DNA of 64,000 nt from an uncultured Paraburkholderia sp. (GCA_940746715.1 CALNWN010000006.1:210922-274921); one strand, 5' to 3'; shown: positions 1 to 64,000, counted from the first letter of the stretch. Program-made: numbers and translations. The notes: generated from the sequence alone by a model not told the origin.

Positions 1-558
1 CCTGGATCACGTGTTTCGCGAATGCACTTCGCCCCGAATGAGAACGCGATCAGTGCGACGACGGTGACGCTCCAGAACACAGAGCGCCAGCCGAAGCGCG
101 CGATCAGCGCGCCAGCGACGATCGGTCCGAACGCCAAACCGACACCGAAGGTCGTGCCCAGCATGCTGAAGGCACGGGTACGGGCTGTGCCGTCGAACTC
201 CTGCGCGAGCGCGGCGGCGCCCGCAGATAGCGCCGCTGCGCTCGCCACGCCTTGCAGCGCGCGTCGCAATGATTGACGAAAGCGCGAAGCCGAGGGTGCC
301 GCAGAGAAACACTCGTTTGCGTCCGAAGTGGTCAGCACACGTCCCGGCAAAGAGCAAGCAACTGCCGAAGGCTAGCATGAAGACATTGGTGACCCAGTTC
401 ATCGCGAGCGGCGACCCGCCCAAGGAGCGAGCGATTGCTGGCAATGCGAGGGCGGGGCCCGTGAAACTGACGGGCATCGATAGCCCGGCAAGGCAGACGG
501 CCGCCAAAATCAATATTCTCTCAGTTGCACTATTTGTTTCCATAGCTGGGTTGCGCAT
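1..558 (-). pseudogene. MFS drug-efflux-type transporter, frameshifted; runs off window start
   Basis: Hydrophobic N-terminus ILILAAVCLAGLSMPVSFTGPALALP and MFS motif ADHFGRKRVFL; frame is lost near 270, and MFS-like text (GTTFGVGLAFGPIV) continues in another frame. Confidence 0.8.
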
Positions 559-727
559 TCTCAAATCCTCGAACGAAGTTTTCGTTTCACCGCAGCTCGC
601 AGCGGATGTGCACGAGGGCTCGCAGCGAGCGACGGGGCCGGAGGGCATATTAAAAGCAGAGCGATTGTGTTTAAATGAGCCAGCATTCCGCTCTCTCGGG
701 ACAAACATTCCCTAATCAGCCATCTTT

Positions 728-1618
728 ATGGAATCGCTCAGTGGACTCGTCGCCTTCGTCCGTGCCGCGGAGATCCGCAGTTTCGTCACCGCTGCACGTG
801 CGCTCGGAATCTCCGCGTCAGCCGTCGGTAAAAGCGTTGCGAGGCTCGAAGGAACTCTTGGTGTGCGACTTTTTCATCGAAGCACGCGCCAAATTAGCCT
901 GACAGAAGAGGGTCTAGTTTTTTTCGAGCGATGCCGCGATGCACTCCAGGAAATTCAAGATGCGGAGGCGCAATTATCGAAAGCGACTATCGCGCCGCGC
1001 GGCCGTTTGCGAGTGAGCATGCCGGCGATCGGCTATCGCTTGCTGCTGCCGATCATTCCGCAATTTCGCTCCCTCTATCCGGAAGTCGAACTGGATTTGG
1101 ACTTTAGCGATCGATTTGTCGATGTCATCGAAGAAGGGTTCGATGTCGTGATTCGCGGTGGCGAACTGGCCGATTAGCGGTTGAAAGCCAGGCACCTTGG
1201 GCCATACCGGTTTGTCGTGTGCGCATCGCCCGAATACTTCGCGAGGCATGGCGTGCCTTTGCACGCTAGCGATCTTGTCGATCATGTTTGCCTACGCTTC
1301 AAGTACCAATCGAGCGGCAAGTTGCAGGAATGGCTGATCGACGGCGTCTCGCCCTTTCACGGGGCGGGCGCGACAACTCCGCTCGTTCTAAATAATGCTG
1401 AAGCTGTTCTCTCGGCGGCGATCCAAGGACTAGGAATCGCCTATGTGCCAGACTTCGCCGCGCGCGACGCGTTGATGGGGGGAAAGTTGCGCATGGTGTT
1501 GGAATCGTCGACGACCGTGGAAGGTGTGTTCCGCGCGCTCTGGCCGACGAATAGGCACATGCTGCCGAAGCTGCGGGTATTTGTCGATTACCTCGCCGAA
1601 CGCTTGCATGCTACGTAG
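728..1618 (+). pseudogene. LysR-type regulator (CrgA/DmlR-like) with in-frame TAG at 1175-1177
   Basis: HTH (SFVTAARALGISASAVGKSVARLE) and substrate-binding domain lie in the same frame either side of GAT TAG CGG TTG; divergent from the MFS gene. Confidence 0.9.
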
Positions 1619-1865
1619 GCGTCGTCGCGCCTGCCCGGCATCCCGCGGAGGTGATGAGCTCGATGGGCCAATGACGGCATACCATCCCTAATCGCGCGTT
1701 GCCGCGTGCCGACAGGGCATGCTGTTTTGATAACCGACGAACGCTTCGGTTTGTCGTTCTACCTTTCCGTATCAAACTCTGCCAGAGCACTTGCGCAATT
1801 TGCGCCGAGTGCAAACGGGGATCAGATTTGTGCTATCCCGCGGCACAACGACGCTGCGTGACCAT

Positions 1866-2031
1866 CGATCCATCGACCTCGGCAGCGTCATCGCGACGCA
1901 GATCGAGGACCCCGTCGCGCAGATCGACGGCGTCGGCGACGTCACGCTGTTCGGCGCCCGGCATGCCCTGCGCATCTGGCTCGATCCGGTGAAATTGCAG
2001 GCTGTCGGGCTCACGACGAGCGACGTCACCA
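1866..2031 (+). pseudogene. Internal fragment of an RND efflux inner-membrane subunit (AcrB-like)
   Basis: IEDPVAQIDGVGDVTLFGARHALRIWLDPVKL matches the AcrB periplasmic GVGDVQLFG..MRIWLDP motif; no start or end. Confidence 0.8.
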
Positions 2032-2066
2032 CCACAGCGACCACAGCGACCACAGCAGCGACCGCA
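2031..2066 (+). repeat. 9-bp tandem repeat ACCACAGCG x2, ACCACAGCA, GCGACCGCA at the acrB/oprM junction
   Basis: Read directly from the sequence. Confidence 0.85.
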
Positions 2067-3277
2067 AACACCCCTCGCTCGCTGCGGGCACCGCCCGGCG
2101 CAGCTTCCTTCGCGACGAACGTCTGCAGCGTCTGATCCAGATCGCGCTGGTCAACAATCGCGACTTGCGCGTGACGGCACTGAACGTAGCGGAATACGAG
2201 GCGCAATACCGCATTACACGCGCGTCGCTCGTGCGGTCCATCACGGCAAGCGGCAGCATGACCCGCGAACGGAAGCAAGGTACGGTTGCGAGTTTCGGCG
2301 ATATCAGCGTCGGCACGACGTCGTGGGAAATCGACTTCTTCGGACGCCTGCGCAGCCTGAAGCGCCAGGCACTGGAGAACTATCTTGCAACGGATGCATC
2401 GCGGCAAAGCACGCAAATCAGCCTCATCGCAACGGTCGCGACGGACTACCTGACCTTGCTCACCGACGAGCGCCTCCTGCAATTGACCGAAGACACGGTG
2501 AAGTCGGACCAGTCCACTTACGACGTGACGAAACGGGTCCAGGAACTCGGCAATGCATCACTGCTCGACGTGCGACAGGCGCAGAACTCGCTCGCGAGTG
2601 CCAAGGCCAGCCTAGCTTCATACCGGCGCGCCGTCGCGCAGGATCGCAACAATCTGACCGCCGTACTTGGCGCGCCGATTCCCGACGACCTGCCGCCCGC
2701 GCGCGCTTTCGACGACGCGCAGATGTTTGCGGACATCGGTGCAGGCGTACCGTCGCTGCTGCTCATCCGTCGTCCGGATATCGTGCAGGCCGAGCATGCG
2801 TTGAAGGCGGCCAACGCCAACATCGGCGCGGCGCGCGGCATTTTTTCCGAAGATCGAATTGACGGCCACCGCGGGCACCTCGAGTTCGACGCTGTCGAAT
2901 CTCTTCAAGGCAGGCACCGGCGCATGGGCGTTCGCGCCGAGCGTATCAGTGCGCACCTTCGATTACGGGAGCAACAAGGCATCGCTCGACATCGCGAAGA
3001 TCGAGAAGCAGATCAAGGTTGCAGACTACGAAAGCGACATTCAGACAGCGTTCAAGGAAGTCCCGAATGCGTTGACGGCGCGCGCCACTTGTGTGGACCA
3101 GGTGCAGGCGGATCGCGAATACCTGGGTCGGCGCAAAACTATTACACGCTCGCCGAGGCACGCTACAAGGCGGGCACGGACAGCTTCCTCACCTTGCTCG
3201 ATGCGCGGCGCACGCTCTCCGCGCAACAGCAACAATTCGGGAACCACGGTGCGCTGACGCGCACTGCATCGTGCTGA
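2040..3277 (+). pseudogene. Efflux outer-membrane factor (OprM/NodT family), lacking lipoprotein N-terminus, frameshifted and truncated
   Basis: RDERLQRLIQIALVNNRDLRV, SWEIDFFGRLRSL, RRPDIVQAEHALKAANANIGAAR motifs; frame shifts near 2845 and 3130. Confidence 0.9.
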
Positions 3278-3720
3278 TTCGTTGAACGCATGATCGATCG
3301 CTGCACGCGAGAAAGACGAGTGTCGGCTGGCGACAGCGCCAGGACGACGAACCCTCAATCAACGGCGTAGCCGCGAAAAGCTTGAGAAGTTTATTTGCGG
3401 CTTTGAACGTGGACGAAGACGTGTAGTCATCGCTTCGTAAAACGCGTCGGGAATACCCAGCAGTGCTGCAAGCGCTATTCAATACCTAGGTCCGCCAGAT
3501 GCACAAGCGAAAGCAAGTCTTGCTGGTGGCATTAGCGCAGGAAAGGTGAGGAGATTCGGGAGCTCGTGTGGCGACGTGACGATCCGTGAGCGACAGGAAG
3601 GGACGTGCCTCACCTGTCACGTTCATCGTTCATGCAAAATCCCCGCGCGAACGCCTCTTACCTGGGTATGCAGATCATTCGCGCGTTTTGAAAGGTGAGA
3701 CTTTTCGGGAGCCGTGAAAA

Positions 3721-4478
3721 TCACACCGGCTTTGCAATCTCACGAATGTCGGCCACAGGCGTCGTACCAAAGGCATCGCTGAATGCGTAGTCGAGCAATT
3801 GAGTGGCGGATTGCTCAGGCGTTGCAAGCTGGCCGTTGCGCTTCAGGTCTTCGAACTTCTCGCGCATCGGAAACTGCTCGACGCCGGTGCCGCGAATCTC
3901 CGCCTGCATGTTCGTATCGATGACGCCGGCGCGAGGCTGCAAATACGCAGCGCGCGAGCGGCGTCGAGTGCGACGGCGCGCGCGTGATGATCCAGCGCGG
4001 CCTTGGTCGCGCAGTAGATGCTCCAGCCGGCGTACGCATTGCGCGCCGCGCCACTCGAAATATGCATGATGCGCCGGTCGCTCACATCCGGGCTGGCTGC
4101 GGCGAGCGCGCTTGCGAGCATCAGCGGCGTGGCGACGTTCAGGCTCACCGCGGTCGCAATGGCCGTGGCGTCTTGGCCTTCGATAGCGCCCATCGGCTGC
4201 ACCATGCCCGCGTTGTTGATCAGCAGGACAGTGCGTGCGCCGCTCACGAATGCACGCAGCGCGTCCGTCGCTACCCATTGTGCAACGCGCGCGGTGTCGG
4301 CGAGTTCGAGTTCGATTTCTTCGAGCAGCGCAGGAAAGCGCTGTTTCAGCGATGCGTGACGCGAGCACGACAGACCGAGCACGGCGACATCGCGTGCAAG
4401 CAGTTGCTCGGCGAGCGCCGCGCCGAGGCCGCGCGTGTGGCCCGTGACGATGGCGCGAATCGGGGAAGAGGAGTTCAT
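3721..4478 (-). pseudogene. Short-chain dehydrogenase (YueD/benzil-reductase-like), frameshift near 3930
   Basis: IVTGHTRGLG, LINNAG, YCATK motifs; C-terminal GVIDTNMQ continues in another frame. Confidence 0.85.
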
Positions 4479-4562
4479 GTCGTTCCTTGAGCGTTGGCTG
4501 AGGCAGGCCGTTATCTTCTCACGCATGTTTGAGACGCGCAGCGGTGCAGTTCACATGCGCTT

Positions 4563-5519
4563 TCAGCTCGCGCGAAAGCGCTCGCGGTACTGCATCGGCG
4601 TCACGCCAATTCGCTTGACGAAGACAATCCGCATGCGGTCCGCGGTGCCGAAACCGCAATCGTAGGCAATCGCCTTGAGCGCTGCGCTGGTGCTTTCCAG
4701 CAGCTTGCGCGCCACGTCCACGCGTGCGCGCTCGACAAATTCGTGCGGCGTCACGCCGGTTTCCTGCACGAACACGCGCGCGAAATGGCGCGCGCTCATG
4801 CTGGCGACATCGGCAAGCTCCTTCACCGTAAAGCTTTCATGGATGCGTTCCATCACGTGCGCCTGCACTTTCACCACCGGTGACGTTTCGTCGGCGGGCG
4901 CGGTGAGATACGGACTGAACTGCGACTGGCCGCCCTGGCGCTGCGCAAACACGACGAGGCGCTTCGCCACCGCGAGCGCAATATGCGCACCGTGATCTTC
5001 CGCGACGAGCGCGAGCGACAGGTCGATGCCCGCCGTCACGCCCGCCGAAGTCACCAGCTGCCCGTCGCGCAGATAGATGCGGTCATAGTCGACGTGCGCC
5101 TTCGGAAACTGCGCGGCGAGCTGCGCCGCGTGCTGCCAGTGCGTCGTGACGTGGCGTCCATCGAGCAAACCGGCGTGGCCGAGCGCGAAGGCGCCCGTGC
5201 AGATGGAACCGTAGCGGCCGCATTGCAGCGCGACTTTTATCAACCAGTCGAGCAGCGGCGCAGCGGGCGGCTCGCCTTCGGGCAGAGCGCCCGCCACCAG
5301 CGCGAGGTCGAAGGGTTCGCGAGCGCGCGCGAAGAGGTCGTCGGCGACAAGCGTGATGCCGTTGGACGCGCGCAGCGGCGCGTGGTCCGCACTCAGCAGC
5401 GTGACTTCGTAACGCGCGCCCGGCGAGACAAAGCGGTTAGCTTCGGAGAAGACGTCGACGGGTCCCGCGACGTCGAGCGCCTGCACGCCAGGAAAGATCG
5501 CGATCGCAACGGTGGGCAT
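4563..5519 (-). CDS. GlxA/FtrA-family AraC regulator (DJ-1/PfpI domain plus HTH), intact
   Basis: GSICTGAF, VTSAGVTAGIDL, RQGGQSQFS and C-terminal AraC HTH; 318 aa uninterrupted. Confidence 0.92.
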   Translation of the reverse strand: MPTVAIAIFPGVQALDVAGPVDVFSEANRFVSPGARYEVTLLSADHAPLRASNGITLVADDLFARAREPFDLALVAGALPEGEPPAAPLLDWLIKVALQCGRYGSICTGAFALGHAGLLDGRHVTTHWQHAAQLAAQFPKAHVDYDRIYLRDGQLVTSAGVTAGIDLSLALVAEDHGAHIALAVAKRLVVFAQRQGGQSQFSPYLTAPADETSPVVKVQAHVMERIHESFTVKELADVASMSARHFARVFVQETGVTPHEFVERARVDVARKLLESTSAALKAIAYDCGFGTADRMRIVFVKRIGVTPMQYRERFRAS

Positions 5520-5673
5520 CGAATGATTCCTTTCTCCATGAGCGAGCCGCGCAAGCCACGGCAGTCAACGCGGTGCGATTGGCAGTGTTCGACGGCTTCC
5601 CGCGATTGTCGCGGCCAGCGCGCTGGCCAATACTGGACTTCATCGGACGCGCCGCATTCACTGCATAAGCCGT

Positions 5674-6759
5674 ATGAAAAACGCGGTGGTCCAGCATACC
5701 AAACGCGCTTTTCCGCTGCACGCGGGCACGTCGCTCTGGTGGTATCTGCAGTCGCGCAACAAGAAGTCGGTTTGCGTGAACCTGAAATCGCCGGAGGGTG
5801 TCGAGATCGTGAAGCGGCTGGCTGCCGAAGCCGACGTCGTGATCGAAAACCTGCGGCCCGGCGCGCTCGAAAAGCTGGGCATCGGCTGGGACGTGCTGCA
5901 TGCGACCAACCCGAAACTGACGATGGTCCGCATTTCCGGCTATGGGCAGTCCGGTCCGTACCGCGACCGGCCTGGCTTCGGCGCGATCGGCGAAGCCATG
6001 GGCGGCATCCGCTATACGACGGGCGAAGTGGACGGAGCGCCCGCGCGTGTGGGCGTGAGTCTTGGCGATTCGCTTGCTTCGCTGCACGGCGTGATCGGCG
6101 CGCTGATGTCTTTGCTGCGGGTAAAAACGGGCCAAGGCGAGGGTCAGGTAGTGGACGTGTCGCTCGTTGAAAGCGTCTTCAATCTGATGGAAAGCCTCGT
6201 GCCGGAATACGACCTGCTCGGCCATGTGCGCGAGCGCAGCGGCGGCGCACTGCCGGGCATCGCGCCCTCGAACACCTATCCCACTGAAGACGACGGCTAT
6301 GTCGTGATAGCGGGCAACAGCGATCCGATTTTCCGGCGCCTCATGCAAGTGATAGGCCGCCCCGATCTCGCGGACGATCCCGCGCTCGCGCACAACGACG
6401 GCCGCGTGCGCCACTGCGCGATGCTCGACGACGCCATCGCCGCATGGACCTCACACCATTCGACGCAAGACGTGCTGGCCGCGCTCGAACGCGCCGACGT
6501 GCCGGCGGGGCGCATCTATTCTGTCGCGGACATCGTCGCCGATCCGCACTACCAGGCGCGCGACATGTTGTTGCAGGCGCAACTACCGGGCGGCGCCTCC
6601 GTGAAGATGCCGGGCATCGTGCCGAAGCTGTCTGACACGCCGGGCGAGGTTCGCTGGCAAGGCCCGGCGCTTGGCGAACATACCGGTAGCGTGCTGAGCG
6701 AACTCGGCTTTGCGAGTGAAGAGATCGAGCGGCTGCGTCGCGAAGGAGCCGTGCAATGA
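5674..6759 (+). pseudogene. CaiB/BaiF family III CoA-transferase, N-terminal segment apparently lost
   Basis: SRNKKSV, ENLRPG, ISGYGQSGPY motifs; the usual N-terminal GIRVLEL..IAGP..GADVIKIE segment is absent. Confidence 0.75.
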
Positions 6760-7721
6760 GTCCTGCCAACAACCTTGCATCGCCCGTGGTGTCTGCCGAC
6801 AAATTGATCGTTCAGGAAGTCGCGCCGCGCGACGGCTTGCAGATCGAACCCACGTGGGTCGAGACGGCTGACAAGATCTAGTTGATCAACGGTCTTTCGA
6901 CGGCGGGCTTCACGCGCATCGAGGCCAGCTCGTTCGTGTCGCCAAAAGCGATTCCCGCGCTGCGTGACGGCGAGGCTGTGTTCCAGCAGATCGAGCGGCG
7001 TGCGGGCGTGATCTATGTGGCGTTGGTGCCGAACCTCAAGGGCGCCGAGCGCGCGCTTGCCGCGAAGGCGGACGAGCTGAATCTCGTGATGTCGGCGAGT
7101 CAGACGCACAATCGCGCGAATATGCGCATGAGTTGCGAATCGTCGCTGGCGGCGTTCGGCGACATTGTGCGCCGCGTGAAGGGTTCGGGCGCGCTGTTGA
7201 ATGCATCGGTGGCGACGGCGTTCGGCTGCCCATTCGAAGGCGCGATTGACGAGGACCGCGTGATCGGCATTGTCGACGCGTATCGCGAGATGGGCATCCA
7301 GGGCATCACGCTCGCCGACACCACCGGCATGGCGAATCCGCGCCAGGTCACGCGGCTTGTCGGGCGCGTGCTGCAACGCGTGCCGTCCGCGGCGCTCACG
7401 CTGCACTTTCACAATACGCGCGGACTCGGTCTCGCCAACGTGCTCGCCGCGTATGAAGCCGGCGCGCGACGTTTCGATGCGGCGCTAGGCGGTCTCGGCG
7501 GTTGCCCTTTCGCGCCGGGTGCGTCGGGCAACATCTGCACGGAAGACCTCGTCAATCTGTGCGACGAAGTGGGCATTCCCACGGACATCGATCTCGAGAA
7601 GCTGCTCGCGCTGTCGCGTGCGCTGCCGGCCTTGCTCGGCCACGACGTGCCCGGGCAGGTCGCGAAGGCCGGGCGCAATCGCGACCTGCATCCCGTGCCG
7701 GACTACGTGCTGCAAATCTGA
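6756..7721 (+). pseudogene. HMG-CoA lyase-family enzyme with in-frame TAG at 6879-6881
   Basis: QEVAPRDGLQ before the stop; LHFHNTRGLG and GGCPFAPGASGNI after it, same frame; ATG overlaps the CoA-transferase stop. Confidence 0.9.
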
Positions 7722-7780
7722 CTTTCCCTCATCCACTAAACGACCGGACGGCACGGCCGAATCCGGCATTGGAGACGAAC

Positions 7781-9109
7781 ATGAGTGACCTCGGCGCAAT
7801 TGCAACCGATGGCTGCGAACAGAGCGCGGACGGCGCGGCGGCCATCATCCGCAAAGTGGCATGGCGGCTGATGCCGCTCATCATGATCTGCTATCTCTTC
7901 GCGTTTTTTGACCGCATCAACATCAGCTTCGCGAAGTTCCAGCTGCAAAGCGATCTGGGTTTGTCCGACACCGCCTATGGTCTCGGCGCCAGTCTGTTCG
8001 TGATCGGTTACGTTTTGTTCGAAGTGCCAAGCAATCTGTTCCTCTACAAGGTCGGGGCGCGGCGCTGGATCGCGCGCATCATGATTTCGTGGGGCCTCGC
8101 GACGGCGGCGATGGTGTTCGTCAACAACGAATGGCAGTTCTACGGCTTGCGCTTCGTGATCGGCGCGATGGAGGCGGGCTTCGCACCGGGCGTGCTGTAC
8201 TACCTCACGCTGTGGTTTCCGCCGAGCTATCGCGGACGCATCACGTCGATGCTGTTTCTCGCGTCGGCTTTTTCTGGGCTGGTCGGGGCGCCGCTTGCGG
8301 GGCTCGTCATCGACCATATGAACGGCGTGCTCGGCATGCCGGGATGGCACTGGCTGTTCCTGTTCGGCGGCCTGCCGTGCGTGCTGCTCGGTTATCTCGT
8401 GCTGAAGCTGCTGAAAGACCGCATCGACGACGCTCACTGGCTCTCGTCCGCCGAGAAGTCGTTTCTGGCCGAGCAGATCGCGCAGCAGAGCCGTCATCCG
8501 CAGACCGGGCATTCGTTCCTCGGGGCGATCAGGACGCCGGGCTTTCTCACGCTGGGGCTCGTCTACTTTCTGATTCAGGTGGCGTCGTATGGATTGAATT
8601 TCTGGGCGCCGCATCTGATCCGCGTGGCGGGCACGCATAATCCGACGCTCATCGGCTTGCTGACGGCCGTGCCCTATGTGTGCGGCGCGATCTGCATGGT
8701 GGTGGGACGCTTGTCGGATGCAAGCGGCGAGCGGCGCAAGTTCGTGTTCGGCTTGCTGGTGATGTCGGCGATCGGATTCTTTGCGGCAGGTTTCTTCGAT
8801 AAGCAGACGGGGTTTCTGATCGGCGCATTGGCGGTAATGGGCGCGGGCGTGGTCGCGTCGATTCCGGCATTCTGGGCATTGTCGCCGAAGCTGGTTACCG
8901 GCGCGGGGGCGGCGGGCGGCATCGCGTTGATCAATACGCTGGGGCAGCTCGGCGGGATAGTGAGTCCGATCATGGTCGGGCGGGTCAGAGATCTGACGGG
9001 AAGCACCACGCCTGCGTTGTATGTGATCGGCGCGATGAGTTTGATTTGTGCGGTGATTGTGTTGTGGGGGTTGCCGGAGTCGCTTAGGGCGAGGGATGGC
9101 GTGCGGTAG
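7781..9109 (+). CDS. MFS anion:cation symporter (ACS family, TtuB/NicT-like), apparently intact
   Basis: RKVAWRLMP, DRINISFA, FEVPSN, GARRWIARIMISWG, EAGFAPG motifs; about 442 aa. Confidence 0.9.
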   Translation: MSDLGAIATDGCEQSADGAAAIIRKVAWRLMPLIMICYLFAFFDRINISFAKFQLQSDLGLSDTAYGLGASLFVIGYVLFEVPSNLFLYKVGARRWIARIMISWGLATAAMVFVNNEWQFYGLRFVIGAMEAGFAPGVLYYLTLWFPPSYRGRITSMLFLASAFSGLVGAPLAGLVIDHMNGVLGMPGWHWLFLFGGLPCVLLGYLVLKLLKDRIDDAHWLSSAEKSFLAEQIAQQSRHPQTGHSFLGAIRTPGFLTLGLVYFLIQVASYGLNFWAPHLIRVAGTHNPTLIGLLTAVPYVCGAICMVVGRLSDASGERRKFVFGLLVMSAIGFFAAGFFDKQTGFLIGALAVMGAGVVASIPAFWALSPKLVTGAGAAGGIALINTLGQLGGIVSPIMVGRVRDLTGSTTPALYVIGAMSLICAVIVLWGLPESLRARDGVR

Positions 9110-9275
9110 GGTTCGAGGCGCAGCGCGGGTTTTTATGTGCGGGGGCAGGGATGCTCATGAGGCAAAGTGTCATGAAGTACGAGGCGGATTTGGACGCCTG
9201 TAGACTGACGGCTAAACCTCGCGGCGAGCGAAATCATGCGCTGTGCAAGGAGAACGCCTTTGATCGATACCAGCA

Positions 9276-9560
9276 ATGCAGGGGATATTAATGGTTAATC
9301 ACCCACCGTACACCGTCGTGCTGACCTATACCGACGAACCGCGGCAATTGACGATGCAAGCCGTGGACTCGGTTCTAGTGGCTCCGCTCATTGAGGGAAA
9401 GATGGGAGTGCCGTTTTTCCTTGATGACGAGGAATTCAGGTTTGGCGATGAACTGGCACGGCAACTGGGAGTTGCAATGCTGAATGTTATCGCGGCAGGT
9501 CGGCCGGAAGTTAGACAGCACCTGAATTTGACTCAGCATCCGATAGAAAGGCGGTCCTAG
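9276..9560 (+). CDS. Hypothetical protein, lower GC than flanks
   Basis: 94-aa ORF with protein-like composition; no recognisable family. Confidence 0.5.
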   Translation: MQGILMVNHPPYTVVLTYTDEPRQLTMQAVDSVLVAPLIEGKMGVPFFLDDEEFRFGDELARQLGVAMLNVIAAGRPEVRQHLNLTQHPIERRS

Positions 9561-9618
9561 GGGACCGATATAAACGCAAGCGTTGCTCTCTTCCGCACCG
9601 GCAGGAGATTGATCCATA

Positions 9619-9870
9619 GCGTCAAACACTTGGCGTATATGTGCGCACGTTGTCCACAGCCCTTTCAACAAATTGTGTGGACAACTGCACGTCGCTGAGC
9701 AGCGCGAGCGTGACCGCGACCGCAAACGATGCCCGCGCGCGGGACGAACTATCGCTATCGCTCGCACTGCCCATACATCGACCGCACGCCGATTCCGCCA
9801 TCGCGTCAATCACTTGGCCGGGCTATGCGAACGTTGTCCACAGCCTTGCCAACATTTTGCGTGGACAACT
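9619..9870. repeat. Two imperfect ~68-bp direct repeats (184-bp period), each with inverted GTTGTCCAC / GTGGACAAC boxes
   Basis: Copies at 9619-9686 and 9803-9870, aligned by eye. Confidence 0.85.
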
Positions 9871-9932
9871 TTGCGGTTTTTCGCGCCCACGCATGAGCCG
9901 CAGCCACGCATAAGGCACGAGGTACATAAACC

Positions 9933-10662
9933 TCAAGCCTTCAACCCCGACCCCGCCGCCGCATCTTCGCGCGACTGCACCTGCAACACCGCATCGCGCT
10001 TATCGAGCAGATGTTGCCGAAGAATTGCGCTGAGCTTCTTGCCGTCGCGCGCCTCAAGCGCCTTCAGCATCTCGTCATGATCGTGAATCGCGCGATCCCA
10101 CTTCGGAATCTGAAAGTTCGAGCGGAAACGCAGCGCCTGCAAACGCCGGTTCACCGAGACATAAGTCTGCCGCAGCGCCGAATTCCGCGCGGCTTCGTTG
10201 ATCCTGTCGTGAATTGCCTGATTGCGGCTGTAGTACCCGGCCAGATCGTTTTGCGCGCGGCACGCGAGCATGGCGTAATGCAACGCCTTGATCTCGGCGA
10301 GTTCGGCCGCCGTCATTCGTTCGGCCGCGAGTTCACCGGAGAAGGCCTCGAGGCCGCTCATCAGTTCGAATGTCTCGCGCAACTCGGCTTCCGACATTTT
10401 CGACACCGACGCGCCGCGATTCGGCCAAATGTCGATCAGCCGCTTCAGCGGCGAGTACCTTGAGCGCCTCGCGCAACGGCGTACGTGAAATGCCGAGCGT
10501 TTCGCACAACTCGCGCTCATTCAGTTTCTTGCCCGGTTCAAGCACGCCTTCGACGATAAACCGGCGAATGTGCTCGACCACCGTGTCATGCAAGCGCTGC
10601 CGCTCCATCTTCGGCAACTGCGCCGCGCCGAGCGAGCTGCCCTCAAGCTCCGAATTTTGCAT
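9933..10662 (-). pseudogene. GntR/FadR-family regulator (FCD domain), frameshift near 10450
   Basis: LNERELCETLGISRTPLREALKVL HTH; the FCD portion is in another frame. Confidence 0.9.
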
Positions 10663-10823
10663 ACAAACTTCCTCAATGCCCGTTTCGGCCAATTTTATCG
10701 GATCGCCGCGACGAAGGGTAGGACGCGGGTAAACACTGGTGCGCAAAGGCAATTTTCAACTTTCGTCGACGCAAGTTCGTCTGATATAGTTTTTTGCATG
10801 CAAAATTCAATCGGAGGAGCACA

Positions 10824-13532: not shown

Positions 13533-13535
13533 GCG

Positions 13536-52875: not shown

Positions 52876-54814
52876 TTAACCGCCGCCGTTTTCCAGCTTG
52901 AACACGCTGACCACTTGCGCCAGACGCGCGGCGTGGTGGCGCAGTTCGGCGACCGCCTCTTCCGCTTCGCCGACGATCGTCGTGTTTTGCTGCGTCGCTT
53001 CGCCGATTTGCGTGACGGCGAGATTGACCTGCTCGATGCCGCCCGACTGCTCGCGCGACGCGACGCTGATCTCGCCCATGATCGCGCGCACCTGGCCGAC
53101 CTGCTGAACGATACCCTGCATGGTCGTGCTGGCCTGCTCGGCGATCTGGAAACCGCTTTGCACCGTCGCCGTGGATTCGGCGATCAGCCCTTCAATCTCC
53201 TTGACGGAGGCCACTACCGCGAACCCCTTGCCGTGTTCGCCCGCGCGGGCCGCTTCGACGGCCGCGTTGAGCGCAAGAATGTTGGTCTGGAACGCAATGC
53301 CCTCGATCACGCTCGTGATCTCCGCAATCTTCTGCGACGAGCGGCTGATGTCGCCCATCGTCGACACCACGCGTTCCACGGCGCGGCCGCCTTCGAGCGC
53401 CGCGTCGGCCGCGCGCGTGACGAGCGTGTTCGCCTGCGACGCGTGATCGGCGTTCTGCTGCACCGTCGATGTTATCTGCTCCATGCTCGCCGCGGTTTCT
53501 TCCAGGCTGCTTGCCTGCGTCGCAATGCGCGAGGCGATGTTGCCGCTGCCGGTGGCGATCTTTTCCGTGCCCTCCGACATATCCGTCGACGCGCTGCGCA
53601 CCTGCGAAACAATGCTGCGCGCCAGACCTTCGCCGATGCCGTCGATCGAGCGCATCAGGCGGCCGATCTCGTCGTCGCGCCGGCTTGCGCTTTGGGCGAC
53701 GCGCACGCTGAGGTCGCCCGAGGCGAAGCGCTCGGAGGCCTTGACGGCCTCGTCGAGCGGCCGGCTGACGAGGCGCCGGACCGCAAACAGGAACACGGCC
53801 GCGAACACGCCGACCAGCACGAAACCCGCGATCAGGAAGTGATTGTGGGTCGCGTTGACCTCGGCCATCACCTCGTCGCGCGGCGCGACGCCTGCCACGA
53901 GCCATTGCCATTCCGGCACCGTGATGAACGAAACGAACTTGTCGCGCGCCTTGTTCGCCGAGCGTGGCGTCGGCGGAACGGTATTCGAGCCGGCCTTCCT
54001 TCATGTCGAGCATGTGCTGATACGGCGCGTTCGCGTTGTCCGCGGCCTGGCCGGCGGCGGCCGGATGCACGATCAGCTTGCCGCGATCCGCGCCTTTCGA
54101 CGCGTTCATCACAAAGTAATAGCCGCTTTCGCCGATCTTCAGCTTACGGATGCCGTCTTCGACCTGCTGGATTTCCTGGTCGACATTCACGCCCACGAAG
54201 AGCGCGCCGATCACGCGGCCGCTCGCATCCGTCACCGGACGGTATTGCGTGATCCAGCGTTTGCCGAAAAGCGGCGCGAGCCCCGTGTAAGTCTTGTTGG
54301 CGATGAGGAGCGCATACGCCGGCCCGTTGCGGTCGAGCAGCGTGCCGATCGCGCGCGAGCCGTCCTGTTTTTTCAGCGAAGTCGTGACGCGCACGAAGTC
54401 GTCGCCGGTGCGCGCGAAGATCGTCGCCACGGCGCCGCTGCGTTCCAGAAACTGGTCGGGAATACTGAAATCCATGTTCAGTACCTTGTCGCCGGCTTTG
54501 AACACGGGCGTGGCCACCCCGTTCACGTCGATTTTCTGCGTTTCGTCGAGCGTGTAGGTGTTCGGCAGGAAGCTCGCGAAGAGCGACGTCGAGCGGTCCA
54601 CTTCGGCGGACAGCGCCTTGTCGAACAACGTGATCATGGCGGCGATCGAGCGGTCTTTTTCGGCGATGCGCTCGAATACCTGGTCGCTGACCTGCTTGCC
54701 GGCGCTGCGTGTCAGCGCCCACGTGAAGGAGGCGAAAATCAACGCCACCAGCACACATGAAAGTACGGCGAGCCGGGCGCTGACGCTGGCACGGCGCAAA
54801 GAGAGAAATTCCAT
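52876..54814 (-). pseudogene. Cache-domain methyl-accepting chemotaxis protein, frameshift near 53945 and in-frame deletion near 53210
   Basis: ATIFARTGDDFVRVTTSL (Cache), [35 protein letters not shown]. Confidence 0.88.
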
Positions 54815-54985
54815 GGGCGTGTGCGGAGTAAGAGGGACGAGCGATGCCGGACGGGCGCGCAGGCACCTTCCGGCATCGTGTCTTGTTTACGGCCACGGCC
54901 ACGCTTCCTTTAGAAAATTGGAAGCATTTCGTAATCATGGCGCGTCCGCGGAGCGCGTCTTTGCACCCGCGCAGGGCGCCCGGCC

Positions 54986-57304
<2,319 letters not shown>

Positions 57305-57348
57305 GATGTTCGAGGCTCGTGGCGGCATGGGGCCGCATGATGAAGTCC

Positions 57349-57379
57349 AGTATCGACCTTCCCATGATGGGAAGGTCAA
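57349..57379 (-). promoter_or_regulatory. CueR/MerR-type promoter-operator
   Basis: Dyad ACCTTCC-N7-GGAAGGT (57356-57376) between -35 TTGACC and -10 GATACT with a 19-bp spacer. Confidence 0.88.
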
Positions 57380-57581
57380 GAACCCGCTCGCGACGCGCCG
57401 GGCTTTGCGGCAACACGCTATTCGCGCCTTTGCGCTTGCCTGGCGAGCGCGGATACGATACATACGACGTTTGTCGCCGAAGCGACGCGGACTGGCTACG
57501 CAGGGTTTGGGAGACCGCGCGAGCACCGGTGCGCTCTCGCCGGCGTCTTTCTTTGGACCGTACGTTCCGCCCCCTGAACGA

Positions 57582-58930
57582 ATGATAAAAAATCGTCGAG
57601 CAACGTTTACGAATTACTGGACCTGCGCATCGTTCGCGGGCCTCGCATTCTTGGCCGGTTGCGCGTCGACGCCGTCCACGACGCAAAAATCCACCGGCTG
57701 GATCAAGGACGAAGTCGCCGATTCCTACGTTTTCGGCTATCCGCTCGTGCTGATGGGCGTCGCGCGCGACGCGGCGGTCGGCACCGAGCCCGGCCAGGCG
57801 CCGCTCAACACGCTGCGCCATGCGCAGGCGCTGCCGCCCATCGGCGCGTCCAATCCGATGCAGCCGAGCCTCGACACGCTGGACTCCACCGGCTGGCTCG
57901 ACGTCGGTAGCGAACCGGTGATCATTGTGTTGCCCGACTCGCGCGGCCGCTATGTCGACGCCCGCGTTCTCGATATGTGGACCAACGTCGTCTGGTCGAC
58001 GGCTGACCAGTTCGCGACGCGCGCGAACGGCATCAAGGCGCAGGCCATTGCGTTCGTGGACCGGGCTGGCAGGGGAACCTGCCGAGGAACGTCAAGCGCG
58101 TCGACGTGCCGACCCGCAATGCATGGGTGAGCGTGCGCATGCAGTCGAACGGCACGCGCGATCTCACGGCGGTTCGCAAGTTGCAGCGCGCGATTCGCGT
58201 CGCACCGCTTTCCGTGTATACCGGCGACACGCGCTCCGCGTCAGTTGTGCCGCCGCGCAGCAGCGCCGATGTGGCCGGCGGCCCGGTTGGCGCCTCGGGC
58301 ACGCCTGCCGCGCAGGTCGCCGCGCTCGACGCGAACGGTTTCTTCAATCGGCTCGCGCAGGCGCTGACCGACAATCCGCCGGAACCCGCCGATCCTCATG
58401 CGCTGAAAATCCTGTCGGATCTCGGCGTGACGCCCGGCGAACCGGTGAAGCTGCCGAGCGTATCCGACGCAATCGCAGCGGGTCTCGCCGATGGTCACGA
58501 GCGCGTCGTCACGCCGCCGTCGAATCTGCTGACCGGCAATGGCTGGAGCTGGTTCGGCGACGGCGTCGGCAACTACGGTCCCGACTACGCGCTGCGCGCC
58601 TACGCCGCGTATGCGCAACCGGGCATCGGCACAAAAGACGACGAGGTGCGTGCGGTCGTCACTCAGGACAGCGACGGCCACGCGCTCAACGGCGCCAACC
58701 GGTACGTGATTCATTTCGCCCCGAATCAGTTGCCGCCGGTGCGCGGCTTCTGGTCGATCACCGCTTACACGAAAGACGGCGCGCTCGGCGAGAGCGCACC
58801 GGCGCGCATCGCGGTGGGCGATCGCAACGGCGCGCGCCGAAATCGCGACGGATCCCTCGATGTGACTGTGTCGTCGACGCGCAGCCGAAGCGGCAACTGG
58901 CTGCCGGCGCCGCGCGCCGACCTGCAACTG
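57582..58930 (+). pseudogene. DUF1254/DUF1214 lipoprotein, frameshift near 58065, C-terminus replaced
   Basis: Lipobox LAGC, SYVFGYPLV, LDMWTNV, PPVRGFWSITAY, NWLPAP. Confidence 0.8.
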
Positions 58931-60094
58931 GTGCTGCAGCAAGGCCGCGTGACTTACACCGACAACTTCATCAAGCCGAACTTCACCGCGAACCTGGTCG
59001 GCATTCAGGGCACCGTGGGGGCGTTCGGCACGCAGTCCACCACGTCCGCGCCCGTTGACATTGCGGCGAAGCTGGCGGCCAATGGCCCGTTGTCGACCCG
59101 TGGCACCGTCAATCCGCTGATCGCCAAGCCGGCGCTCGACCTAACCGCGAGCGCGCATGACATCGAACTGACGAACCTCACGCCGTATTCCGCGAAATAT
59201 GCGGGCTATCCGATCACCAAGGGCAAGTTGAACGTCGATCTTCACTACAAGCTCGAAAACGATCAACTGAACGCGGATAACCATTTGTTCATCGAACAAC
59301 TCACGTTCGGCGATCACGTCGAAAACGACACGGCGACCAAGCTGCCTGTGCGGCTCGCCATTTCGCTCCTGAAAAATTCGCGCGGCGAAATCGACGTGAA
59401 TCTGCCGGTGTCCGGCTCGCTGTCGAATCCGGAGTTCAGCATTGGCGGCCTCATCTGGCACGCGGTGCTCAATCTGCTGCAAAAAGCGGTGACCGCGCCG
59501 TTCTCGCTGATCGCCAACGCGTTCGGCGGCAGCGGCGAGGAGTTGGGTTACGTCGAATTCGAACCGGGCTCGGCGCAACTGACGGACGCCGACAGCAACA
59601 AGCTCGACACGATCGTGAAGGCGCTCGGCGCCAAGCCGTCCATCAGAATGGACCTGATCGGCCGCGTCGATCCGAAGCTCGACGAGCCCGCGCTGCGCGC
59701 GCTTTATGTGGACCGCCTCGTCAAGCAGCAGAAGATCAAAGACGTAGTGGGCAACGGCCAGAGCGTGGATCTCTCGAGCATTACCGTGGACCCGAAGGAA
59801 TACGACAAGTATCTGACGAAGGCCTACAAGGCCGCCGACTTCAAGAAGCCGCGCAATTTTGTGGGCCTGACCAAAAGCTTGCCCGACGACGAAATGAAGA
59901 GCGCGCTCGCCGCGAACGCGCCTATCGACGAAGCCAGTTTGCGGCAACTTGCCCAGCAGCGGGCACAGAGCGTGCAGCAATACCTGGAAGGCAAGATCGA
60001 CAGCAGCCGCGTGTTTATCGTCGCGCCGAAGCTGGACGCGGACGGCATCAAGGACAAAGGCGCGACCACCCGCGTCGATTTCGGGCTGAAATGA
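58930..60094 (+). pseudogene. C-terminal part of a DUF748-family protein fused in frame to the DUF1214 remnant
   Basis: GRVTYTDNFIKP, LTPYSAKYAGYPITKGKL, LPVRLAISLLKNSRGEIDVNLPVSGSL. Confidence 0.8.
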
Positions 60095-60161
60095 GCCATG
60101 TCACGGCGCGGCGGTTGCAGGCCGCAGCCGTGCGCCAAGGCCTTGGCGCCAGCTCCAGCGC

Positions 60162-61705
60162 TCAGGCGGCGCGCGTCGGCGTCCTGAGCGTGGTCTGCTC
60201 GATGACGCGCGCGAGTGTGTCGAACGCCGGCCCGATCCTGTCGTTCGGCACGCACGCATAGCCGAGCAGCAGGCCGCGCCGCGCGGGCGGATCGTTGCTG
60301 TAGTAGCGCGCGAGCGGCCGCACGATCACGCCGGCGTCGAAGGCGGCCGCGGTCACCGCGCGGTCGTCCGCGTGGTCCGGCAGACCGAGCACCAGATGCA
60401 AGCCGGCTTCGTCGCCCATGACCGGCAGTTGGTCGCCGAAACGCGCGGTGATCGCGTCGATCAGAATCTGCCTGCGCTCGCCGTACAACGCGCGCATGCG
60501 CCGCACATGCGACGCGAGGTGGCCGTCCATGATGAAGTCGGTCATGACCGCCTGCTGCATCAGCTGACCTTCGCGGTACAGCTCGGCGATGCCGGTGCGA
60601 AACGTGTCGACGAGGTGCTCCGGCGCGATCATGTAGCCCATGCGCAAGCCCGGAAAAAGCATCTTGCCGAGACTGCCCACGTAAATCACCTGGCCGGCGT
60701 CGCTCAGACCTTGCAGCGACGCGAGCGGCCGGGTGCCGTAGCGAAATTCGCTGTCGTAGTCGTCCTCGATGATCCACACGTTGTGCTGGCGCGCGTATTC
60801 GAGCAGCGTGCGGCGGCGCGCGAGGCTCATCACCATGCCGAGCGGATATTGATGCGACGGCGTGACGAGCGCGAGACGCGGCTGCTGCTGCAAATCCTCC
60901 TCGCGCGGATTGAGGCCCTCGTCGTCGACCGGCACGGGCACGAGCGTGATGCCCGACGATTGCAGCACGCTGCGCGCGCCCCAGTAGCAGGGTTCTTCCA
61001 CCCAGGCGCGGTCGCCGACGTCGGTCAAGAGGCGCACCGCCAGGTCGATGGATTGGGTGAATACCCGTAGTGATGATGATCTGATCCGGCGTGCAGTTCA
61101 CCGAACGCGCGACGCGCAGATAGTCCGACAACGCGCGGCGCAGCGGCCGGTAGCCGGTAGCCGCCGCCGGGCGCATGTGTCAGCAGATCCGGATTCGCTT
61201 CCTTCCACAAACGCGCTTGCAGACGGCTCCAGGTCCGGGCCGGAAATTCGGCGACGTCGGGCACGCCGGGCATGAACGCGCCCCACTGTTTCGCGGATAC
61301 GCCGGCCTGGCCGATCAGGCGCCGCCCGCGGTTGGACAGGTCGTTCAGATCGCGCCGCGTCACCTTGCCTTGCGCGCCGGCCGCCGCGACAGCCGCGACG
61401 GCCGGCTTTCTGCGCGCGTTGACGGCGGCGGTGTCCGGCTGGGTATCGGCGACATACGTGCCGCTGCCCGTGGTCGAGAGCACATAGCCTTCGGCCGTCA
61501 ACTGGTCGTATACATGCAGAACGGTATTGCGCGCAATGCCCAGATCTTCGGCCAGCGTGCGCGAGCTGGGCAGCTTGGTGCCGGGCGGCAGCTCGCCGGC
61601 CAGAATGGCCTGCTGCATCAGCCGCAAAGTCTGCCGGTAGATCGGCTCCCCGGCCGCGCGATCGAGCCTGGCGGCGAGCCAATCCGACAAGATGATCGTG
61701 TCCAA
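60162..61705 (-). pseudogene. MocR/GabR-family regulator (GntR HTH plus PLP aminotransferase domain), frameshifted
   Basis: LPSSRTLAEDLGIARNTV, VTPSHQYPLG, IEDDYDSEF; 7-bp duplication at 61149-61162. Confidence 0.9.
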
Positions 61706-61835
61706 GTGGTTCTATCCGGAATAATGAAATGGTTCCATATTGTAGAACCGTAACGGTCTATAGTGGGCCACGCAATTGATGCAAGCCTGCTGTGACGCAG
61801 CAGCAGCCGGCTCGACCGCAGAGGAGACTACGGCG

Positions 61836-62949
61836 ATGAAAACGGACGAAGTGATCGTCAGCTTTCGAGGCGTGCGCAAGACGTACGACGGCGAAACGCT
61901 GGTCGTCAAGCAACTGGATCTGGACATCTATCAGGGCGAATTCCTGACGCTGCTCGGGCCGTCGGGTTCCGGCAAGACCACCTGCCTGATGATGCTGGCC
62001 GGTTTCGAATTTCCCACTGGCGGCGAGATCTGGCTCGACGGCACGCTGCTCAATACCGTGCCGCCGCACAAGCGCAACATCGGCATGGTGTTTCAGAACT
62101 ACGCGCTGTTCCCGCATCTCACGGTCGAGCAGAACGTCGCGTATCCGCTGACGGTGCGCAAGGTCTCCGCCGAAGAGCGCGCGCATCGCACCAACAATGC
62201 ATTGAAGATGGTGCGCATGGAGAGCTTCGCGAAGCGTTATCCGGCGCAGCTGTCGGGCGGCCAGCAGCAGCGCATTGCGCTCGCGCGGGCGCTCGTGTTC
62301 GAGCCGAAGCTCGTGTTGATGGACGAGCCGCTCGGCGCGCTCGACAAGCAGTTGCGCGAACACATGCAATACGAACTGAAGTCGCTGCACGAGAAGCTCG
62401 GCGTGACCTTTGTCTACGTCACGCACGATCAGGGCGAGGCGCTGACCATGTCGGACCGCGTTGCCGTCTTCGACAAGGGCATCGTGCAGCAGCTCGATAC
62501 CGTGGACAGTCTGTACGAATCGCCTTGCAACGAGTTCGTGGCGAACTTCATCGGCGACAGTAACAAGCTGCGCGGCACGATCGCGAATGTGAACGGCGAG
62601 TATTGCGAGTTTCATCTGGCCGACGGCACGCGGCTGACCGGCCGCAACATCGGCGGCGCGCGGGCGGGAACGCCGGCCATTGCCTGTATCCGGCCGGAAC
62701 GCATGAAGCTCGCGACGGGCGCCAACGGCAACGGCGCGGCACGGCCGGGCGCCAATGCACTGGCCGGCGAGGCGCGCGGGCTCATCTATTTCGGCGATCA
62801 CGTGCGCATGCGCTGCGGTTTTGCCGCAGCAGGACGAGTGCTTCGTCAAGGTGCCGCTCGGCACGGACGCGCTCGCATCTTTCGCGCCTGGCGCGCCGGT
62901 GGCGCTCGAGTTCGCGCCCGAGCATCTGCGGGTATTCGCGGGGGCGTGA
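61836..62949 (+). pseudogene. Polyamine/GABA-type ABC ATPase (PotA-like), late frameshift near 62820
   Basis: GPSGSGKTT, LSGGQQQR, LMDEPLGALD. Confidence 0.88.
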
Positions 62950-63052
62950 CGGCGCAAAACGCGCGCATGATTGCAGGGGCCGGAGCAGTAAGCAGCACAT
63001 AACAACTCGCATGACTGATGCTTGAAACCACCACCAAGGAGAGCAACACACC

Positions 63053-64000
63053 ATGAGCAAGATCGGGAAATCGCGCTGCGCCATCGCTGTCGGTGCTGTG
63101 GCGCTCGCGCTGGGCGCGGCGCAGGTCAATGCAGCCGAACTGACGGTCGTAAACTTCGGCGGCGCCAACGGGGACGCGCAAAAGGCCGCCTTCGACCAGC
63201 CGTTCGAGTCGCAAAGCGGCAACAAGGTGACGGCGGTGGAATACAACGGCGAGCAGGCCAAGGTCAAGGCGATGGTCGAGGCCAAGCATGTGAACTGGGA
63301 CGTGGTGGAAGTGGAGTCGGGCGACATTGGCCGTGGCTGCGACGAAGGGCTGTATGAAAAGCTCGACTGGTCGAAGATCGCCAAGAAGTCGGACCTGATT
63401 CCCGAGGCGCCGCAAACTTGCGACGTGGGCTTTTTCGTGTGGTCGACGGCGCTTGCGTATAACGCCGACAAGCTGAAAACCGCGCCGTCCGGCTGGGCCG
63501 ATTTCTGGGACGTCAAGAAGATTCCGGGCAAGCGTGCGATGCGCAAGGGCGCGCGCTACAACCTCGAGTTCGCGCTGATGGCCGACGGCGTCGCGCCGAA
63601 AGACGTCTACAAGGTGCTGGCGACGAAGGAAGGCCAGGACCGTGCGTTCAAGAAGCTCGACGAGCTGAAGCCGAACATTCAGTGGTGGGAAGCGGGCGCG
63701 CAGCCGCCGCAGTTCCTCGTGGCGGGCGACGTGGTGATCGACGGTTTATAACGGCCGCATCGACGCCGCGCAAAAGGAAGGCAAGAACCTGAAGGTCGTG
63801 TGGAACGGCAGCATTTACGACCTCGACTATTGGGCGATTCCGAAGGGCTCGCCGAACAAGGCGCTAGCTGAGAAGTACATCGCTTATACGCTTTCGTCGA
63901 AGCCGCAGCAGGACTACGCGCATCACATCGCTTATGGCCCGGTGAATGTGGCGGCGATCAAGGCGCTCGACGCGAAGACGCTGGCCAATCTGCCGAACTC
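63053..64000 (+). pseudogene. PotD/PotF-like ABC substrate-binding protein, frameshift near 63740; runs off window end
   Basis: Signal peptide, NWDVVEVE, LEFALMADGV, YNGRI in a shifted frame. Confidence 0.85.

Follow-up and report, generated by a model that had tools for sequence, protein, structure and literature searches.

Recent genome erosion in a 64-kb stretch of DNA from an uncultured, probably host-restricted Paraburkholderia of the P. phenoliruptrix clade

A contiguous stretch of 64,000 nucleotides (nt) from an uncultured Paraburkholderia sp. (GCA_940746715.1, CALNWN010000006.1:210922-274921), referred to here as the window, carries genes of which about two thirds are broken, and it was compared with the corresponding DNA of free-living relatives and with public sequencing runs. 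An initial annotation, made from the sequence alone, had described the window as a case of genome erosion in a recently host-restricted Burkholderiaceae symbiont. The comparison upholds the erosion as real and recent, evidenced by lesions that are supported by reads, occur in excess and are private to the lineage, by an unchanged content of guanine plus cytosine (GC), by a low ratio of non-synonymous to synonymous substitution rates (dN/dS) and by relaxed selection; host restriction is what we infer from these features together with the make-up of the sample and the literature. In all likelihood the window derives from the secondary chromosome of a Paraburkholderia of the P. phenoliruptrix clade that became host-restricted recently, the best candidates being the leaf endophytes that Danneels et al. 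described from Vangueria (Rubiaceae) (10.1101/2022.09.27.509721).

Reference genes were called in three loci of P. phenoliruptrix LMG 22037 located on one contig (L081, corresponding to window positions 3490-17315; L161, 17306-36079; and L241, 41565-57821) and in a locus of another Paraburkholderia sp. genome (L325, which spans window ~57.4-64 kb). A codon-log-odds caller with the best-scoring start was used, which matched the database's own gene calls for L325. Each reference gene was tested against the window by tblastn and nucleotide alignment, and was considered intact when at least 90% of its length was spanned by one segment free of stop codons. Of the reference genes that the window contains and that encode at least 100 amino acids (aa), 25 were broken and 13 intact. 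When the same genes were examined in 18 free-living loci, belonging to P. graminis, P. dilworthii, P. caledonica, P. xenovorans, P. kirstenboschensis, another P. phenoliruptrix strain and others, ~205 were intact and only 5 (~2%) scored as broken, all of these being low-scoring, doubtful open reading frames (ORFs). Addition of the regions 1-3490 and 36-41.5 kb (three further loci, L001, L322 and L323, span window 30.7-41.4 kb) raised the figures for genes of this size to ~33-34 broken vs 13 intact, and inclusion of small ORFs gave ~36 broken out of 53, i.e., ~68% (range 66-70%); overall, the count of broken genes can be put at ~34-36 out of ~51-53 recognisable ones. The pseudogene load of the window is therefore far above that of its free-living relatives, and a manual tally of about 38 broken genes out of ~56, made previously without reference genomes, corresponds to the same share. 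Every type of lesion listed in that tally was found, including nonsense codons (at 1178, 6879, 12963, 21040, 22185, 29604, 31399 and 39300), insertions or deletions (indels) of 1-2 nt, tandem duplication and gene-fusing deletions.

These lesions belong to the DNA of the organism and are not assembly errors. Indel errors of noisy long reads or a poor consensus may mimic frameshifts, and many of the lesions are 1-2-nt indels such as those seen in unpolished long-read assemblies, yet an origin of this kind has a negligible probability in view of an independent assembly of reads. The public run X1 contains 100% of the window's sampled 31-mers, and its Logan contigs, obtained by k-mer assembly, agree with every window base compared: the stretches 1-20000, 30001-40000, 40001-60000 and 57500-64000 show neither a mismatch nor a gap, and the word depth is 124-140x. 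Window 20001-30000 lies within one X1 contig of 27,835 nt, where the flanking coordinates differ by exactly the window distance, evidencing no net length change. Thus, the removal of most lesions by polishing, named with the initial annotation as an outcome that would refute it, is not what the reads show. The nature of the lesions also argues against sequencing error: the 55 1-nt indels relative to LMG 22037 are balanced between insertions (28) and deletions (27) and only 8 of them are located in homopolymers of at least 4 bases, nonsense substitutions, an exact 14-nt duplication and kilobase deletions with microhomology are found besides them, and two sister samples (X2 and X4) bear different lesions elsewhere. 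Contig depth spikes at 35011-36346 and 62057-62490 were seen in all runs; they derive from aldehyde-dehydrogenase and ABC-ATPase motifs of paralogues located at other sites of the genomes and do not point to a change of copy number in the window.

Searches with window proteins among species representatives identified P. phenoliruptrix LMG 22037 as the best-matching genome, followed by P. graminis; for instance, the amino-acid identity of a transporter of the major facilitator superfamily (MFS) was 96% and 95%, respectively. Protein identity to P. phenoliruptrix was 95-97%, as compared with 76-79% for the Caballeronia homologues among the matches listed, and Caballeronia loci were ~81% identical to the window at the DNA level. 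LMG 22037 is colinear with the window, with 94-95% nt identity across 48.7 kb aligned, a local value that includes pseudogenes and differs in kind from a genome-wide average nucleotide identity (ANI). Based on these sequence comparisons, the source organism is assigned to a Paraburkholderia close to P. phenoliruptrix and not to Caballeronia. The corresponding region is on chromosome 2 in P. xenovorans LB400 and P. caffeinilytica, which places the window on an accessory replicon, and a search of a plasmid collection gave distant matches only (~81% identity), to Caballeronia and Burkholderia chromids. Neither an exact 69-nt sequence of the window nor three of its intact proteins had an identical match among the database contigs searched. 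The GC content of the window has a mean of 0.642 and stays between 0.60 and 0.69 throughout, the reference loci having 0.636-0.652, so that the earlier remark that GC remains high holds when set against orthologous DNA. The peak of GC at third codon positions changes phase every few hundred bases along the window, the pattern expected of frameshifted genes.

A further eroded Paraburkholderia lineage was found in locus L321 (ENA ERZ25039594 contig_15289, 1-21560). It has split genes, e.g., CoA_binding and Succ_CoA_lig, and GD_AH, as well as large deletions of its own, in which the counterparts of window 22.5-26.2 kb and 32.6-37.8 kb are gone; its prfC is seemingly intact and encodes a protein 98% identical to that of the broken prfC of the window. 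L321 was dropped as a reference locus, being a different eroded lineage with 80-90% nt identity to the window.

The erosion is lineage-specific and is running in parallel in sister lineages. Three organisms from the same study were compared, namely A, the window lineage (run X1), B (runs X2 and X3) and C (run X4), which are ~96% identical to one another (~3-4% divergent). X2, X3 and X4 contain ~30% of the window's words (~96% identity), and X10, a free-living relative, contains 26%; the contigs of X10 add up to only 7.5 Mb, as expected of a genome from a free-living organism. X10 lacks every frameshift scored as well as the large deletions of 5.9 kb, 424 nt and 3.0 kb, and these are lacking in X2 and X4 wherever scorable. 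Specifically, the frameshifts at 11423, 11502, 11605, 11708 and 11794 and the 1-nt deletion at 58057 occur in none of X2, X4 and X10, while the 5.9-kb deletion (junction at 17306-17315), the 424-nt deletion (18087-18098) and a 2-nt deletion at 17897 are in addition missing from X6. The DNA removed by the 5.9-kb deletion is retained in X2, X4 and X10 (5.8-5.9 kb), and X10 retains 2990 nt at the site of the gene-fusing 3.0-kb deletion at 58925. Conversely, X2/X4 carry lesions that have no counterpart in the window, including 1-nt deletions at 10790 and 10816 and a 177-nt deletion at 13753-13931, and four further lesions are found in X4 only. Among the lesions scored, none was seen to be common to the window lineage and its sisters. 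Window 59019-64000, which contains the tail of an AsmA gene, a MocR regulator, potA and the gene for a substrate-binding protein, is covered by no X2 or X4 contig and gave only short paralogous ABC-motif matches; the sisters seem to have lost this DNA independently while the window retains it as pseudogenes.

Since the lesions are private to A and since B and C show different lesions and large deletions in the same region, it may tentatively be proposed that several lineages within the otherwise free-living species P. phenoliruptrix were separately host-restricted and are eroding in parallel. In addition, A may have a specific repair defect, as its branch shows 2.5-fold more G:C>T:A changes and its indels outnumber a crude neutral estimate. 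We hold this proposal to be less probable than not by a clear distance. If it is true, the opening stages of genome reduction could be followed in the P. phenoliruptrix clade as in an experiment that nature has replicated.

Decay in the window is recent, as the GC content and dN/dS of the pseudogenes are still like those of functional genes. The pairwise dN/dS against LMG 22037, a comparison with the nearest free-living relative that had been suggested with the initial annotation, was low in broken (0.116) and intact genes (0.112) alike, with a synonymous divergence (dS) of ~0.14, and the same genes gave 0.08-0.096 between free-living species. This indicates that most of the divergence arose while the genes were functional and that the pseudogenes are young. 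A different picture was obtained when substitutions in the blocks aligned to LMG 22037 were polarised with outgroups: the window branch had 124 non-synonymous and 191 synonymous changes (a ratio, N/S, of 0.65) vs 91 and 246 on the LMG branch (0.37), corresponding to an odds ratio of 1.75 (p = 0.0009), and all 4 polarised nonsense changes were on the window branch (0 on the LMG branch). Purifying selection is thus relaxed on the window branch.

A free-living or facultative Paraburkholderia in which decay is limited to this stretch of chromosome 2 with no host restriction, for example because a function was lost locally or a mutator was active for a time, would also carry such lesions. This is compatible with the fact that the window contains dispensable functions only and is located on a secondary replicon, and the number of G:C>T:A changes, 2.5-fold higher on the window branch than on the LMG branch (56 vs 22), could reflect a repair defect. 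The excess may be due to relaxed selection or to a lost function in the repair of oxidative damage (8-oxoG), such as mutY or mutM, neither of which was located in the window. However, N/S rose equally in intact and broken genes of the window branch (0.67 and 0.64, vs 0.36 and 0.37 on the LMG branch), which points to relaxation across the lineage and not gene by gene. A general mutator was ruled out, given that the polarised branch leading to the window is hardly longer than the free-living one (458 vs 436 changes) and that the share of transitions is similar (62% window vs 66% LMG). Besides, this region is also decaying, in an independent manner, in two sister samples from the study that includes X1, endophytes of P. 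phenoliruptrix with exactly such a pattern genome-wide have been published, and the X1 sample looks host-dominated, its contig set of 114 Mb in 771,541 contigs resembling a composition of host plus symbiont. Purely local decay is therefore regarded as improbable, and the recent restriction of the whole lineage to a host is preferred.

Regarding the mutations responsible, the alignment with LMG 22037 contained 2298 mismatches and 121 indel events over its 48.7 kb, and 73 of the latter were of 1-2 nt. A deletional bias is present: indels of at least 2 nt comprised 52 deletions and 14 insertions, and the window carries at least five deletions of 0.4-6 kb. Around one in two of the 1-nt indels is in contact with a run of at least two identical bases and approximately one third of the longer indels are the gain or loss of a tandem unit, so that slippage explains part of the indels, not all. 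A mismatch-repair defect was considered as their source and rejected because few indels are in long homopolymers. The junctions of the large deletions are located on imperfect direct repeats of 7-14 nt, which is a signature of illegitimate recombination or slippage and not of loss mediated by insertion sequences (IS). No IS or transposase was detected in the 64-kb window, as the initial annotation had observed, and the blocks aligned to LMG 22037 contain no insertion longer than 18 nt; except for 1-3352, where only remnants of ordinary genes are found, the window is homologous to free-living Paraburkholderia DNA. IS proliferation, a common but not obligatory feature of early-stage genome reduction, is hence not seen here. 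The earlier proposal that reduction was driven by slippage and deletion rather than by IS hopping is supported by the small indels, the repeat-flanked deletions and the lack of IS, with the qualification that its IS part holds for these 64 kb and that the contribution of slippage is partial.

The erosion has parallels in other bacteria that recently became dependent on a host. Recently derived Sodalis-allied insect symbionts (SOPE, S. glossinidius), Burkholderia mallei and Mycobacterium leprae have, like the window, many multi-lesion pseudogenes with nearly unchanged base composition and synonymous divergence, and they show massive IS expansion and IS-mediated rearrangement. In contrast to these genomes, the window has no IS over 64 kb and its deletions occurred on 7-14-nt direct repeats. 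Leaf-nodule Caballeronia ('Candidatus Burkholderia' kirkii, crenata and others) of Psychotria, Pavetta and Ardisia, which were proposed as a model in the initial annotation, live as heritable symbionts in the leaves of Rubiaceae and Primulaceae; their coding capacity is 40-70% and, like the window, they have many pseudogenes. They belong to another genus, as the protein identities given above indicate, and according to Danneels et al. their reduction is more advanced and rich in IS, up to ~10% of the assembly (10.1101/2022.09.27.509721). The model thus pointed to the right biological neighbourhood but to the wrong genus, the best fit being the non-nodulating leaf endophytes of Vangueria.

Danneels et al. 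assembled leaf endophytes of Rubiaceae and Primulaceae (10.1101/2022.09.27.509721). In that study, the endophytes of Vangueria infausta, V. esculenta, V. madagascariensis and V. randii are placed within P. phenoliruptrix at 95-96% ANI, and Ca. P. soutpansbergensis has just under 95% ANI to the same species; the genomes of the Vangueria endophytes are of at most 5 Mb, with more than half of the proteome non-functional and GC unchanged, IS elements make up on average ~2% of such assemblies, and flagellar and motility functions were lost in several of the endophytes (10.1101/2022.09.27.509721). As far as described there, these organisms have in common with the window the proximity to P. phenoliruptrix at ~95%, a GC content of ~64% that is unchanged, rampant frameshift and null mutations, more than half of the genes non-functional and the recovery of several related endophytes in one study, and the three broken chemoreceptors of the window fit the reported loss of motility. 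A difference is that IS are reported for those genomes while the window has none. On the basis of sequence, the window fits the published description in all the respects tested, and the make-up of the runs, with three related organisms from one study, contig sets of host size and a relative in a 'plant metagenome', is consistent with it. Its identification as one of the published Vangueria endophytes is considered probable, though somewhat less so than the broader assignment to an eroding, host-restricted member of the clade.

It is also conceivable that the organism is a host-restricted symbiont of another type of host (insect gut or bacteriome, fungus, amoeba), because Burkholderia sensu lato includes eroded symbionts of several kinds of hosts and the host is deduced here from indirect evidence. 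The nearest species being P. phenoliruptrix, the presence in one study of three closely related organisms and the occurrence of a relative in a 'plant metagenome' run argue against this, and no eroded symbionts of the P. phenoliruptrix clade other than the Vangueria endophytes, Ca. P. soutpansbergensis among them, were found in the literature; a host other than a Rubiaceae leaf is accordingly judged unlikely.

For an endophyte of Vangueria, the process can be envisaged as follows. Accessory genes encoding transporters, catabolic enzymes, chemoreceptors, regulators and release factor 3 (RF3) would no longer be needed, and together with a smaller effective population size, presumably caused by a bottleneck, this would relax purifying selection. 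Small indels of 1-2 nt, nonsense changes, tandem duplications of short length and, between short direct repeats of imperfect identity, deletions of 0.4-6 kb, all of them ordinary spontaneous mutations, would then be fixed. As mutation is biased towards deletion, the genome would shrink, with GC content and codon usage having had no time to shift, and a repair defect in lineage A, if present, would speed the decay.

Several points weigh against this interpretation or restrict its reach. The window comprises 64 kb of an accessory replicon, and owing to this location its proportion of broken genes is probably above the genome-wide average. In mutation-accumulation lines of B. cenocepacia, 42 short indels were recorded for 233 substitutions (10.1101/060483), and from this ratio the indels in the broken genes are ~3 times the number expected in a crude estimate of neutral time, so that a raised indel rate in the window lineage is possible. 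The estimate derives from excess non-synonymous changes and is too rough for an anomaly to be called, and the load is regarded as of the B. cenocepacia order. Moreover, GC>AT over AT>GC changes were 2.93 on the window branch vs 2.24 on the LMG branch, a difference that is not significant (p = 0.13).

Very young host-restricted bacteria that have a close free-living relative reveal which genes go first and by which mutations, and with a relative ~95% identical and of the same gene order each lesion can be resolved to the single base. Both the phenomenon and these genomes have been published before, and the window adds detail rather than discovery, namely the private and parallel lesions, the microhomology at the deletion junctions, the local lack of IS and an estimate of the youth of the decay. 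The passages of Danneels et al. covered here contain no analysis of private lesions or deletion junctions.

Broken genes of the window with a role in sensing and regulation encode three chemoreceptors, a hybrid histidine kinase, a sigma-54 activator and regulators of the GntR, LysR and MocR types; MFS and ABC transport components, an operon for efflux of the resistance-nodulation-division (RND) type, several catabolic enzymes, AsmA and RF3 are also affected. Functions that were kept include a copper ATPase, one MFS transporter, two short-chain proteins, RidA and an epimerase-like protein. Amid the decay, neighbouring genes have stayed intact in two runs (33125-36169 and 51245-52840); these are either still selected or simply not yet struck, and their N/S is as high as in broken genes.

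At the left end of the window (strands are given as + or - after the coordinates), Pfam matches identified a pseudogene fragment of an MFS transporter (7-708, -) of which the first ~79 of 347 profile positions are left, a LysR regulator (728-1618, +) cut by an in-frame stop at 1178-1180, its helix-turn-helix and substrate domains lying in two adjacent ORFs of the same frame, an AcrB/RND pump remnant (1791-2135, +) with ~60 of 1021 profile positions, and the remnant of an outer-membrane efflux protein (OEP; 2165-3277, +) with a single Pfam OEP match. They are followed by a short-chain dehydrogenase/reductase (SDR) oxidoreductase (3721-4478, -) with a 1-nt deletion at 3927 and by an FtrA/AraC-type regulator (4563-5519, -) whose ORF is intact, although a 1-nt insertion at 5531 may cost it the original N-terminus. 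At 5715-5731 is the junction of a 1.9-kb deletion by which three genes, including a LysR regulator, are gone; it coincides with an imperfect direct repeat of ~14 nt, GCTGCACG(C/A)GGGC. The same deletion took the 5' end of a family III CoA-transferase gene (5715-6759, +), next to which are an HMG-CoA lyase gene (6787-7721, +) with a nonsense TAG at 6879 and an intact MFS transporter gene (7781-9109, +).

Further downstream, a GntR regulator gene (9933-10662, -) has a 1-nt insertion at 10442, and the BhcA-like aminotransferase gene (10824-12043, +) is the site of the five frameshifts mentioned above, which the gene alignment places at 11424, 11499, 11606, 11709 and 11794, within 3 nt of the positions in the run comparison. 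An MFS transporter gene (12249-13532, +) is interrupted by a nonsense TGA at 12963, a hydratase/decarboxylase gene (13536-14320, +) by two frameshifts (13715 and 13932), and a gene for a YdiJ-like FAD/Fe-S oxidoreductase (14402-17315, +) by four, its 3' end having been removed by the 5.9-kb deletion, which has a repeat of ~8 nt at its junction. On the other side of this junction, a thioredoxin-reductase-like gene (17306-18098, -) is truncated at both ends and has two frameshifts. The 424-nt deletion that fuses it to the next gene has at its junction a 12-nt direct repeat, ATGCCG(T/C)CGCGC, and the gene in question, encoding a DedA/rhodanese protein (18087-18980, -), is truncated and carries two frameshifts as well. 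A hypothetical protein of 180 aa (19890-20431, -) is nearly intact, with a 1-nt deletion near the 5' end of its gene.

All three genes for methyl-accepting chemoreceptors in the window are broken: one with a PAS domain (20723-22390, -) by five frameshifts and two nonsense codons, one of the Tar type (44317-45915, +) by a 22-nt deletion at 45510, and one with a Cache domain (52876-54754, -) by a 2-nt deletion at 53946. Between the first and second of them, the hybrid sensor histidine kinase gene (22681-26187, +) has four frameshifts, the gene for a RidA-family protein (26235-26612, -) is intact, and that of a 466-aa protein with no family assigned (26742-28143, -) has a 1-nt insertion at 27332. 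The sigma-54-dependent activator (28479-29951, +) is interrupted by a nonsense TAG at 29604 and a serine hydrolase with a beta-lactamase fold (30889-32091, +) by many deletions and a stop codon. In the first intact run (33125-36169, +), the gene for a 174-aa protein, which in distant relatives carries an aldehyde- or formaldehyde-activating annotation, is accompanied by those for an aldo/keto reductase and a succinate-semialdehyde dehydrogenase.

The gene for a sugar MFS transporter (36257-37638, +), detected by a Pfam region scan, is split by a frameshift. In P. sediminicola and in a metagenomic Paraburkholderia a chaperone-usher fimbrial cluster is located between this transporter and prfC (L001 7969-12202; L323 4284-9675). 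The cluster is missing at window 37634-37905; as it is also missing in the free-living relative X10, this is a difference between lineages and not a product of erosion. The prfC gene itself, encoding RF3 (37885-39499, +), bears an exact 14-nt tandem duplication at 38293-38320, a nonsense TGA at 39300 and a 1-nt deletion at 39473; in Escherichia coli prfC is dispensable. A frameshifted LysR regulator (39650-40446, -), the remnant of a CoA-ligase/acetyltransferase (40707-41388, +), whose full protein has 788 aa, and an amidohydrolase remnant (41565-41833, +) of which 32% is left follow, the latter adjoining a site at which 5 kb or more of the LMG 22037 sequence is deleted. An SDR (41890-42633, +) and a thioesterase (43612-44046, -) are intact, and an FAA-hydrolase family protein encoded between them (42718-43565, +) has a 1-nt deletion at 43223.

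Beyond the Tar-type chemoreceptor, a GlcNAc-2-epimerase-family protein (46483-47592, -) is intact and a 511-aa protein with no family assigned (48145-49663, +) has four frameshifts in its gene. The second intact run (51245-52840, +) encodes a 3-hydroxyacyl-CoA dehydrogenase and a flavin reductase, and the copper P-type ATPase gene (54986-57526, -) is likewise intact. A tRNA-Arg(TCT) predicted by ARAGORN at 56747-56825 (-) is probably a false positive, being located inside this copA ORF and without Rfam support; the Rfam scan of the window gave no RNA family at threshold, and among the public RNA runs searched none contained the window sequence.

Towards the right end, the gene of a DUF1254/DUF1214 protein (57582-58937, +) has, besides the 1-nt deletion at 58057/58058, its 3' end fused to the next gene. 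The latter, of the AsmA/DUF748 type, is represented by its last 31% (58925-60094, +); the deletion of ~3.0 kb has a 13-nt overlap at 58925-58937 and produced an in-frame fusion to DUF1214. The MocR-type GntR/aminotransferase regulator (60162-61618, -) has frameshifts at 61055 and 61152, the PotA-like ABC ATPase (61836-62949, +) has one near its 3' end (62819), and the gene for an ABC substrate-binding protein (63022-64000, +), frameshifted at 63738, continues past the end of the window.

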